DNA from: Anaerolinea thermophila
Lineage (GTDB): Bacteria > Chloroflexota > Anaerolineae > Anaerolineales > DRKV01
Reading direction: 5' to 3'
Length of the DNA: 27,072 nt
NCBI GenBank assembly: GCA_020722405.1
Contig: DYKW01000001.1
Span: forward strand, 18,880-45,951
The translations under genes and the position numbers were made by a program. Below, in pieces: positions 1 through 1,553 of the stretch; positions within the stretch are counted from its first letter, which is position 1; each line of letters begins with the position of its first letter. Under the pieces are notes generated by a model, which saw only the letters and a list, made by a program, of their open reading frames with translations, searched no databases and had not been told where the DNA came from.

Positions 1-805
1 ACAGCGCCTCGGTTTCTTGCAGGCTTTGCTGTACTCGTTGGAATAGGGTGGCGTTCTCGAGTGCTAGCGAGAGTTGATCAACGACTTGGGCGACCAGTTG
101 CGTTTCATCCTCATTCCATATACGCTCAGGATTTTCGTCTACTAATTCAACGACACCCAGTGCTTGCTCTTGTAATTGAATCGGTGCAGCCAGCGCGGCC
201 GGCCTTTCGGGCAATTGGGAAGGCCAGGCAACCACTTGTTTGCGTTGCAGACTTTCCCTGGCGGCGGGTGTGAGCGGGTCTTTGGCAGGTGAGATTTTAT
301 CTTGTTCTACCAAAATCCCCTGGGGAATTTGATGGGATGCGGTACCGGTTGGGTGGGAGTCAGCCGGTTTTGCTTTGAATCTCGGGAATGAGGGTTCAAG
401 TTGTTGGCATTGCGTAAACCCCTGATAGCCGGCCGGGGTGTCCCCTTCGGTTGCGGTGCCTGTAATCGTCATGATGGCCGGGATAATGTGTCCATCACGA
501 TGGTGCAACTCAACGCCAATTTCCAGTGGGAAGGTGCCGGCAGTTAGCGCGGCTTCCAGGCGTGGTGCATCTTCTGTGCTCAGTGCGAAGGTCAATGGTT
601 GTCCAAGCCATTCTTCTGTGGAGTAACCCGTTAAATCGGTGCATTGTGGGCTGCAGGCGATGTAGTGTCCCTGGGCATCGGCCTTCCAGTGCCAGCCGCG
701 CAGCGTTTCTTCCGGCGTAGCATGGTCGCCGGTGGGAGGAACGTCCTCCATGCCGGTAAATAGGGTTTCGAGACGGTTACGCAATCGTTTTCGCTTTTTC
801 GACAT
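1..805 (-). CDS. PAS + GAF signalling protein, 5' part only (runs off the left edge); not in the ORF track
   Basis: Hand translation from ATG at 805 (AGGAG 10 nt upstream) is open to base 2. It reads MSKKRKRLRNRLETLF..., then a PAS-like segment GWHWKADAQGHYIACSPQCTDLTGYSTEEWLGQPL...HHRDGHIIP, then a GAF segment LAAPIQLQEQALGVVELVDENPERIWNEDETQLVAQVVDQLSLALENATLF. Confidence 0.9.
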   Translation of the reverse strand, partial: MSKKRKRLRNRLETLFTGMEDVPPTGDHATPEETLRGWHWKADAQGHYIACSPQCTDLTGYSTEEWLGQPLTFALSTEDAPRLEAALTAGTFPLEIGVELHHRDGHIIPAIMTITGTATEGDTPAGYQGFTQCQQLEPSFPRFKAKPADSHPTGTASHQIPQGILVEQDKISPAKDPLTPAARESLQRKQVVAWPSQLPERPAALAAPIQLQEQALGVVELVDENPERIWNEDETQLVAQVVDQLSLALENATLFQRVQQSLQETEAL

Positions 806-1553
806 GTGTTATCAACTCCTGAGCCAAAACCCGGTATTGTTCGGCGCCGCGGCTGACCTTAGAAAAATGTGTTACCGGTACACCAGCCACGGTACTCTCG
901 CGTAATTTGGTGTCAATTTGAATGGCGGTCTGATAAACCTTTTCGCCGAAGCGGGTGCGGATTTGTTTCTCGATGGTACGGTGAACGCCGTTGCGCAAAT
1001 CTAGCATGGTAATCAGAATGCGGTAATCTAAAGTTTTGTTGCCTTTTTGTTGAATTTGGCGAATCAGTTGCAGAACGTTGCGCAGGGCGTAAGCAGAAAA
1101 ATACTCGGCTTGCGTGGGAATGATGAGGTGTTGGGCTGCCATGAGTGCATTACTGGTAACTGCACCCAAGGATGGCGGGCAATCGAGTAAGATGAAGTCA
1201 TACAATGCCGTGTCACGCAACGCCTGGCGGAGGATATGACGGTAATTTTGCCGGATAGGTAAGAAGCGCTCGGCGGTAATCATCTCTTGGTTGGCGGGGA
1301 TGATATCTAGTCCAGGAATATCGGTCTCGCGGCTAGCGCTCAAAGCAGTACTGGCATTGAGAAGTACATCGGCGATGGTGTGTCGCATGGCCGTTGGTTG
1401 TAGCCCGATACCTAAAGTCAGGTTTGCCTGAGCGTCCAAATCCACTAAGAGCACTTCGTATCCATTTTCAACCAATGCACCGCCGAGTGCCAGGCAGGTG
1501 GTGGTTTTGGCTACACCGCCTTTTTCATTTGCTACGGCAATAATATGGGTCAT
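777..1553 (-). CDS. parA: ParA/Soj-family ATPase (orphan, no parB in window)
   Basis: Deviant Walker A KGGVAKTTT, LLVDLDAQANLT, DFILLDCPPSLG, IIPTQAEYFS and TMLDLR; AGGAG upstream of the ATG. Confidence 0.95.
   Translation of the reverse strand: MTHIIAVANEKGGVAKTTTCLALGGALVENGYEVLLVDLDAQANLTLGIGLQPTAMRHTIADVLLNASTALSASRETDIPGLDIIPANQEMITAERFLPIRQNYRHILRQALRDTALYDFILLDCPPSLGAVTSNALMAAQHLIIPTQAEYFSAYALRNVLQLIRQIQQKGNKTLDYRILITMLDLRNGVHRTIEKQIRTRFGEKVYQTAIQIDTKLRESTVAGVPVTHFSKVSRGAEQYRVLAQELITHVEKAKTIA

Follow-up and report, generated by a model that had tools for sequence, protein, structure and literature searches.

A stretch of 27,072 nucleotides from Anaerolinea thermophila (assembly GCA_020722405.1, contig DYKW01000001.1, positions 18880-45951; called the window below) carries an orphan parA gene whose 3′ end overlaps the start of a gene for a multi-GAF histidine kinase. 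The extreme N terminus of that kinase resembles the peptide with which ParB engages its cognate ParA. ParA/MinD ATPases are general cargo-positioning motors of bacteria, acting on chromosomes, plasmids, carboxysomes, chemoreceptor arrays, flagella and the divisome, and the best reading of our data is that the kinase is a partner or cargo of this ParA. Specifically, we propose, with a probability of about 0.6, that the tagged kinase is the partner of a catalytically intact, Soj-derived ParA, and that the tag docks on the ATPase, stimulates ATP hydrolysis, brings about distribution of the kinase over the nucleoid and forms with ParA a pair insulated from Soj-ParB. The idea of a ParB-like partner peptide at this position came from an original prediction made from the letters of the window, and it is well supported computationally by conservation of the peptide throughout the order, its ParB register, which a profile alignment selected as well, its uniqueness in the genome and a remodelled pocket in the ParA. 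The further proposal, that the ParA positions or segregates a GAF signalling complex, is one that we infer by analogy with known ParA systems.

Of 61 relatives at the level of the order, 37 had ParA orthologs, with identities of 44-93%, and in 27 of the 30 relatives' loci that were fetched, the downstream gene opened with the motif and started 8-41 nt before the parA stop. A wider survey, restricted to one genome per species, returned 80 ParA loci. Those with a ParA identity of at least 44% all came from metagenome-assembled genomes (MAGs) of Chloroflexota, mostly labelled Anaerolineales, and nearly all of them carried the tagged gene. Survey and relatives together yielded 59 distinct peptides plus three longer variants; the peptide beside parA, first noticed at a single locus, is thus conserved in 59 distinct orthologous forms across the Anaerolineales. 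When 300 genomes were sampled throughout the phylum, 22 of the 28 that belong to the same order had the ParA clade, and no member of it was detected among 7 genomes of other orders in the class or among some 265 of other classes. Within the genome under study, a loose version of the motif occurred at one of 17,242 candidate starts (open reading frames of at least 100 amino acids), and that one is the start of this kinase gene.

The peptide of the window kinase is MSKKRKRLRNRLETLF (encoded at 805-758, with the RLETLF core at 775-758), and the consensus of the kinase peptides is M-[SP]-K-K-x-[KR]-[IL]-x-[KN]-R-L-[ED]-x-L-F. When the first Leu of L-E-x-L-F is numbered 0 and residues are counted over the 59 distinct peptides, three hydrophobic positions stand out: 0 (L/I in 59/59), +3 (L in 58/59) and +4 (59/59, with F in 57 and L in 2). 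Position +7 is I/L/V in 50, +1 is E/D in 49, −1 is R in 45 and −4 is I/L in 43 peptides, and position −2 is K in 27, N in 19 and R in 3 (K/R in 30/59). The often-Asn site at −2 is followed directly by a nearly invariant Arg. Two to four Lys or Arg residues lie further upstream, and 54 of the 59 peptides carry a net positive charge ahead of the motif; in the five whose net charge is zero or negative, R-L-E-x-L-F is still kept. The motif is followed by an acidic or Pro-rich stretch of variable length, and in most orthologs the next 15 residues are net acidic.

These positions coincide with those that mutational analysis has defined in ParB. In Myxococcus xanthus ParB, L11, L15, L18 and I19 are each required for ParA binding, and stimulation of the ATPase depends on the central R13 (PMC12462528); the five residues correspond to positions −4, 0, +3, +4 and −2, respectively, of the kinase peptide. 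The same register accommodates K3/K7 of B. subtilis Spo0J, R10 of T. thermophilus Spo0J and R9 of H. pylori ParB (PMC11229316). An hhalign comparison of the 59 kinase N termini with 16 ParB N termini chose this register as well (P = 0.0045). At canonical Soj loci of other phyla, retrieved in the same survey, the next gene is parB and its product starts K-K-R-G-L-G-R-G-L-D-A-L-L. A relative of the same genus has a separate soj-parB operon; the ParB of that operon starts with MPKKRTGLGKGLDALIPG and the kinase of the window with MSKKRKRLRNRLETLFTG, and the two are identical at 8 of 18 positions without a gap. The three glycines of the ParB G-L-G-R-G-L sequence are replaced in the kinase peptide by K/R, N/D and R. 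It is a general rule for ParA/MinD ATPases that their partners work through a short, charged extension at the N terminus, attached to a cargo protein that is otherwise unrelated (PMC7993993; PMC10241942), and the kinase has such a peptide at its extreme N terminus, positively charged and followed by a variable acidic or Pro-rich linker, together with the hydrophobic register of ParB; the central basic residue is K/R in only the 30 peptides mentioned above. The most economical reading is a pair of ParA and partner in which a histidine kinase is the partner and its tag, on a flexible tether, is derived from ParB or mimics it. Because the tagged gene sits where parB normally does, the arrangement suggests an origin by parAB duplication, with the body of ParB replaced.

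The position of the translation start bears on all of this. The downstream start overlaps the parA stop by 29 nt, as had been predicted (805 − 777 + 1 = 29 in the open reading frame scan), and the good Shine-Dalgarno sequence claimed for it is AGGAG at 820-816 on the minus strand, 10 nt before the ATG at 805. An alternative start at the ATG at 751 (MEDVPP), which would have removed the peptide from the protein, was rejected: it has no Shine-Dalgarno sequence, and its Met is missing from orthologs beyond the closest relative. We also considered whether the motif might be a by-product of the ParA reading frame. The RLETLF core lies entirely downstream of the parA stop, and the overlap varies among orthologs from −17 to +41 nt with the motif kept throughout; conservation of the peptide is therefore not derived from the ParA frame.

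One could also envision that the peptide has nothing to do with ParA and is instead a membrane- or DNA-binding amphipathic helix, a signal for degradation or folding, or a consequence of translational coupling. Its amphipathic character and usual net positive charge would suit such a role, as would the weak score of the complex prediction described below. We regard this as improbable: the motif core is outside the overlap and persists at loci that have no overlap at all (L039, L061 and L066), the five peptides with zero or negative net charge retain R-L-E-x-L-F, the match to ParB is residue for residue at mutationally defined positions, and the motif occurs only beside this ParA clade.

The ParA itself has the features of the ParA/MinD family, with Pfam scores of 165 bits for AAA_31 and 63.5 bits for CbiA, and its closest solved structures are M. 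xanthus ParA (8RAY), T. thermophilus Soj (1WCV/2BEK) and H. pylori Soj. The deviant Walker A motif is NEKGGVAKTT, in which K11, G12, G13, K16, T17 and T18 are unchanged in every one of the 59 orthologs; D38 and D40 of Walker A′ and D124 of Walker B are likewise present in all 59, and in the alignment with 8RAY, D40 falls on D60 of M. xanthus ParA. The DNA-binding patch was mapped through an alignment with the T. thermophilus protein and the correspondences given in PMC6393308. R187 (equivalent to R189 of B. subtilis Soj, BsSoj) is basic in 59/59 orthologs, K216 (BsSoj R218) in 58/59 and R199 (BsSoj K201) in 33/59. BsSoj R189 and R218 are the two patch residues validated by mutagenesis in B. 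subtilis. The original prediction had placed basic residues at the nucleoid-binding sites of Soj, in MLDLR and IDTKLRE; this holds for R187 and K216, whereas R199 is only partly conserved and the R215 site is hydrophobic. Non-specific DNA binding by the ParA is thus plausible from its residues. At window positions 895-918, which encode ParA residues 212-219, the Soj sequence P-R-N-V-R-L-[AS]-E reads E/Q-[VI]-D-T-K-L-R-E in the orphan clade. Two residues of this segment, D214 and R218, are invariant in 59/59 orphan proteins and absent from 16 Soj proteins, and they adjoin the DNA-patch helix. The corresponding loop of Soj contacts both the ATP adenine and DNA.

If the kinase peptide has taken the place of ParB, one would look for changes in the ParA surface that receives ParB. 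Six pocket residues for ParB and ten residues with strong nuclear magnetic resonance (NMR) shifts have been reported for M. xanthus ParA (PMC12462528). We mapped these 16 positions onto the orphan ParA through the 8RAY alignment and compared 45 non-redundant orphan ParAs with 16 Soj proteins. V116, which is V/I/L in 16/16 Soj proteins, is R/Q/K in the orphan clade; L152 is changed to A/T/P, L192 to D/T/S/G, E117 to F/Y, E176 to Y/H and T184 to L, and L150, L118 and G151 are kept. These new residues are in turn fairly conserved among the orphan proteins. The 16 positions were tested as a set fixed beforehand: their mean Jensen-Shannon divergence was 0.50 versus 0.30 for the rest of the protein (Mann-Whitney p = 0.007; permutation p = 0.003), and 7 of the 16 were among the 40 most divergent positions (p = 0.005). 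Such a pattern would be expected if partner specificity had switched at the ParB site.

The same observations bear on the possibility that this is an ordinary ParA of chromosome or plasmid partition, with its ParB encoded elsewhere and the kinase adjacent by coincidence. The protein has 35-40% similarity to Soj, its closest structures are chromosomal ParAs, and a ParB could be missing from a genome that is 59% complete. The gene downstream of parA, where a ParABS system would have an adjacent ParB (ParB/Srx plus HTH), encodes a PAS-GAF histidine kinase. The genome assembly, in 279 contigs and 59% complete, gave no ParB_N match, and a search of the window for parS gave one hit with three mismatches, which is at chance level, in agreement with the earlier claim that the window contains neither parB nor parS. 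Set against an ordinary partition role are this lack of parS in the window, the conservation of adjacency and overlap across the order, the existence of a separate canonical soj-parB operon in relatives, and the altered pocket (V to R/Q/K, L to A, L to D/T/S). We consider such a role very improbable.

Modelling of the ParA dimer with the peptide, which the original prediction had put forward, was carried out as an ESMFold2 job with the ParA dimer, two ATP and kinase residues 1-40, using custom alignments and three controls. The complex scored 0.59 versus 0.00 for the best control. The mark applied to this score is reached by 58 of 80 solved complexes and by 2 of 110 mismatched pairs, and scores that pass it at 0.60 or below belong to only 7 of the 80 solved complexes plus both of the passing mismatches. 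In the model, the peptide makes contact through residues 4, 7-8, 11-12, 15-16 and 18-19, that is, with helical spacing, through its conserved hydrophobic face and with both ParA subunits; on the ParA side, it touches residues 151-161 and 193-201 in one subunit and residues 219-230 in the second. The modelling gives weak support for binding and is no guide to the binding mode, as the mapped pocket was not matched.

Several observations weigh against the proposed partnership or against parts of it. The score of 0.59 is itself weak, and the modelled site misses the equivalent of the mapped ParB pocket (96-98, 129-134 and 155-171) except for the helix around residue 155. Nor is the modelled interface significantly enriched in clade-specific residues (p = 0.13; 0/16 by a strict criterion). 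The test of pocket divergence is uncontrolled for surface exposure, and three hydrophobic positions of the pocket are polar or small in the orphan ParA; the binding mode of ParB is therefore not simply transferable to the kinase peptide. The central basic residue of ParB, at −2, is Asn in the window and in 19/59 orthologs, and the canonical DNA-patch arginine equivalent to BsSoj R215 has been lost, the position being V/I/M. Finally, there are ParA orthologs without a tagged gene (L064 and L074) or with only a remnant of one (L043 and L048), and the exceptions also include ParA paralogs of lower identity that lie beside gcvH or a threonine-synthase-like gene.

The two remnants, next to ParAs of 56% identity, read MPRKKN-stop-KIYNRINGL (L043:3735-3800) and MSSSKKIPSHLSKLFLKI-stop-stop (L048:1806-1870). 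The kinase appears to have been lost or displaced at these loci, which are possibly natural cases of a ParA without its cargo, or assembly breaks. Several genomes have a second ParA paralog, and in four of the five such loci that were fetched it has its own version of the tag downstream. These second pairs of ParA and tagged gene (at L120, L122, L124 and L125) carry tag variants such as RIEALF, QIKALF, RLEEIF and RLDEIF, and the presence of two distinct variants within one genome raises the question of how cross-talk between the pairs is avoided. A more distant ParA paralog of the same order (41-43% identity; L127:1690-1790 and L033:2200-2300) is followed by a gene that begins MKRASLKTAKVP and has a basic N terminus; genes of this kind may represent a second, unrelated type of ParA partner.

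The kinase gene has 268 codons in the window before it runs off the left edge, where a run of 100 N follows directly (contig positions 18780-18879). Beyond the run, a minus-strand frame is open right from the edge of the gap and extends for at least 2,979 amino acids (9705-18779), encoding at least nine GAF domains along with HisKA, HATPase_c and two REC domains. Transmembrane segments were predicted neither in the part of the kinase inside the window nor in the part on the far side of the gap. Because the frames are open on both sides of the unbridged 100-N gap, the partner of the ParA is most probably a single soluble multi-GAF hybrid histidine kinase of approximately 3,300 amino acids. The equivalent gene in a complete genome of the same order encodes 1,049 amino acids with the order PAS-PAS-GAF-HisKA-HATPase-REC-REC, and there again Cache-HAMP-GAF sensors and parA precede the kinase; by comparison of the predicted proteins, kinase size is variable and the architecture is conserved. 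In a complete relative genome (L119:8999-10651), the tagged kinase is followed by a fusion of a pyridoxal-phosphate enzyme (PALP) with a receiver and then by an EamA transporter, and in another MAG (L076:3786-4100) a threonine-synthase-like gene directly follows a ParA paralog. These neighbours offer hints of the pathway output.

Taken together, these findings lead us to the following model. An additional, Soj-derived ParA would have remained catalytically intact and would probably still bind nucleoid DNA non-specifically. Its dedicated partner would be a giant soluble hybrid kinase, encoded immediately downstream and translationally coupled, which presents an amphipathic N-terminal peptide on a flexible acidic/Pro-rich tether. 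Analogy with ParB, PomX, McdB and TlpT suggests that the peptide would form a short helix that docks on the ATP-bound ParA dimer, at its edge, and stimulates hydrolysis of ATP. The kinase, with any sensors associated with it, would thereby be tethered to and spread over the nucleoid rather than diffusing freely, and the remodelled ParA pocket would keep the pair apart from the Soj-ParB system of the same cell.

Alternatively, the ParA might bind the peptide as a regulator instead of a positioning motor, with its ATP-dependent dimer sequestering, pairing or allosterically gating the kinase, or the kinase N terminus might control a ParA that acts on some other target (Soj, for example, acts on DnaA). 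The evidence for peptide binding serves this possibility just as well, the gene lies inside a signalling operon with two receivers, and the peptides of ParB work best when paired by dimerisation (PMC12462528), a histidine kinase being an obligate dimer. The two validated DNA-binding positions and all of the ATPase residues are, on the other hand, strictly conserved, as a nucleoid-gradient motor would need and a simple clamp would not, and all characterised pairs of a small ParA with an N-terminal-peptide partner position cargo (PMC7993993; PMC10241942). We think that a regulatory role is unlikely, and we favour the kinase as a partner that is distributed over the nucleoid.

A broader evolutionary scenario can be put forward only tentatively. 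A parAB duplicate in an ancestor of the Anaerolineales might have kept nothing of ParB but its ParA-binding tip and had it grafted onto a giant multi-GAF kinase, giving rise to a signalling machine on the nucleoid in which many output-less membrane sensors feed one tagged kinase and which a co-evolved pair of pocket and peptide insulates from chromosome segregation. ParA would set the spacing of this machine along the cells, which are long in these filamentous bacteria. If so, the machine would match ParA-positioned chemoreceptor arrays outside chemotaxis. The membrane GAF sensors may associate with the kinase in one complex. Were the kinase partnership true, a histidine kinase with its own ParB-like tag would represent a new class of ParA cargo, ordinary two-component signalling could be spatially organised on the nucleoid, and the tag would be a natural example of "luggage tag" modularity of interest to synthetic biologists. 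The paired changes in pocket and peptide would, moreover, provide a defined system in which to follow the evolution of ParA-partner specificity and the avoidance of cross-talk between paralogs.

All of the genes of interest are on the minus strand, and their coordinates are collected in Table 1. The sensors mostly consist of a Cache- or MASE-type input, then HAMP, then GAF by Pfam, and the last of them is separated from parA by 16 nt. Genes of the sensor row overlap or abut at 3297-3300, 5024, 8763-8791, 11632-11645, 14492-14529, 17215-18 and 21032-35 of the window; because of this, the gene arrangement suggests translational coupling across a whole operon of nine output-less GAF sensors, parA and the kinase. 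A scan of positions 1-3400, which span the sensor-parA-kinase junctions, gave no promoter or terminator above chance. The locus was present in none of the RNA runs searched for co-transcription, and it was complete only in a biofilm metagenome, which is its probable source.

Table 1. Features of the signalling locus, in window coordinates and in the order of transcription.
Feature	Position	Strand	Basis and remarks
Two single-domain response regulators	23246..24110	minus	Pfam Response_reg; head of the cluster
Nine output-less GAF sensors and one NMT1-type binding protein	1570..23125	minus	Pfam; directly upstream of parA, same orientation
Orphan ParA/Soj-type deviant Walker A ATPase, 258 amino acids	777..1553	minus	Open reading frame scan; Pfam AAA_31 (1.8e-48), CbiA, MipZ
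Shine-Dalgarno sequence AGGAG of the kinase gene	816..820	minus	Sequence; inside conserved parA codons A-Q-E-L; ggctcaggag context repeated upstream of ortholog starts
ParB-like N-terminal peptide, kinase residues 1-16	758..805	minus	First 29 nt overlap the parA 3′ end
Variable Pro/Glu/Thr-rich linker from peptide to PAS, kinase residues 17-36	698..757	minus	Alignment: no conserved columns, length variable
Kinase PAS and first GAF	2..697	minus	Pfam PAS_9/PAS, GAF; gene continues past the left edge of the window

Searches of the literature that covered orphan ParAs in connection with a histidine kinase, GAF or Anaerolineae brought up no description of such a system, and the locus is best placed by comparison with three groups of characterised ones. 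With the chromosomal ParA(Soj)-ParB(Spo0J) pairs of M. xanthus, T. thermophilus, B. subtilis and H. pylori it shares a small Soj-type ParA with its catalytic motifs and R189/R218-type residues, a partner gene immediately downstream, and a basic aliphatic motif in the L11-x-R13-x-L15-x-x-L18-I19 register. Unlike in chromosomal ParABS, the putative partner is a PAS/multi-GAF kinase of about 3,300 amino acids that lacks the ParB/Srx CTPase domain and HTH, and there is no parS. The PpfA-TlpT pair of Rhodobacter sphaeroides and the ParC-ParP pair of Vibrio are similar in that an orphan ParA lies in a signalling cluster and the proposed cargo is a signalling complex; the basic N terminus of TlpT has been proposed to activate PpfA (PMC7993993). 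The locus differs from these in having no signalling domains of methyl-accepting chemotaxis proteins (MCPs) and no CheA or CheW. Its neighbours by Pfam are Cache/MASE-HAMP-GAF, REC and HisKA/HATPase proteins, with no Che domains among them, and the candidate cargo is a two-component GAF hybrid kinase. In addition, the tag here is recognisably ParB-like and not just basic, and the identity of the ParA points to Soj rather than to the ParC or PpfA lineages. In PomZ-PomX and McdA-McdB, as here, the logic is modular: a disordered tether with a short charged peptide at the N terminus has been grafted onto an unrelated, cargo-forming protein. The cargoes of those systems are different, a divisome regulator for PomX and the carboxysome for McdB, and their peptides share the charge of the kinase tag but not the ParB hydrophobic register that it displays.

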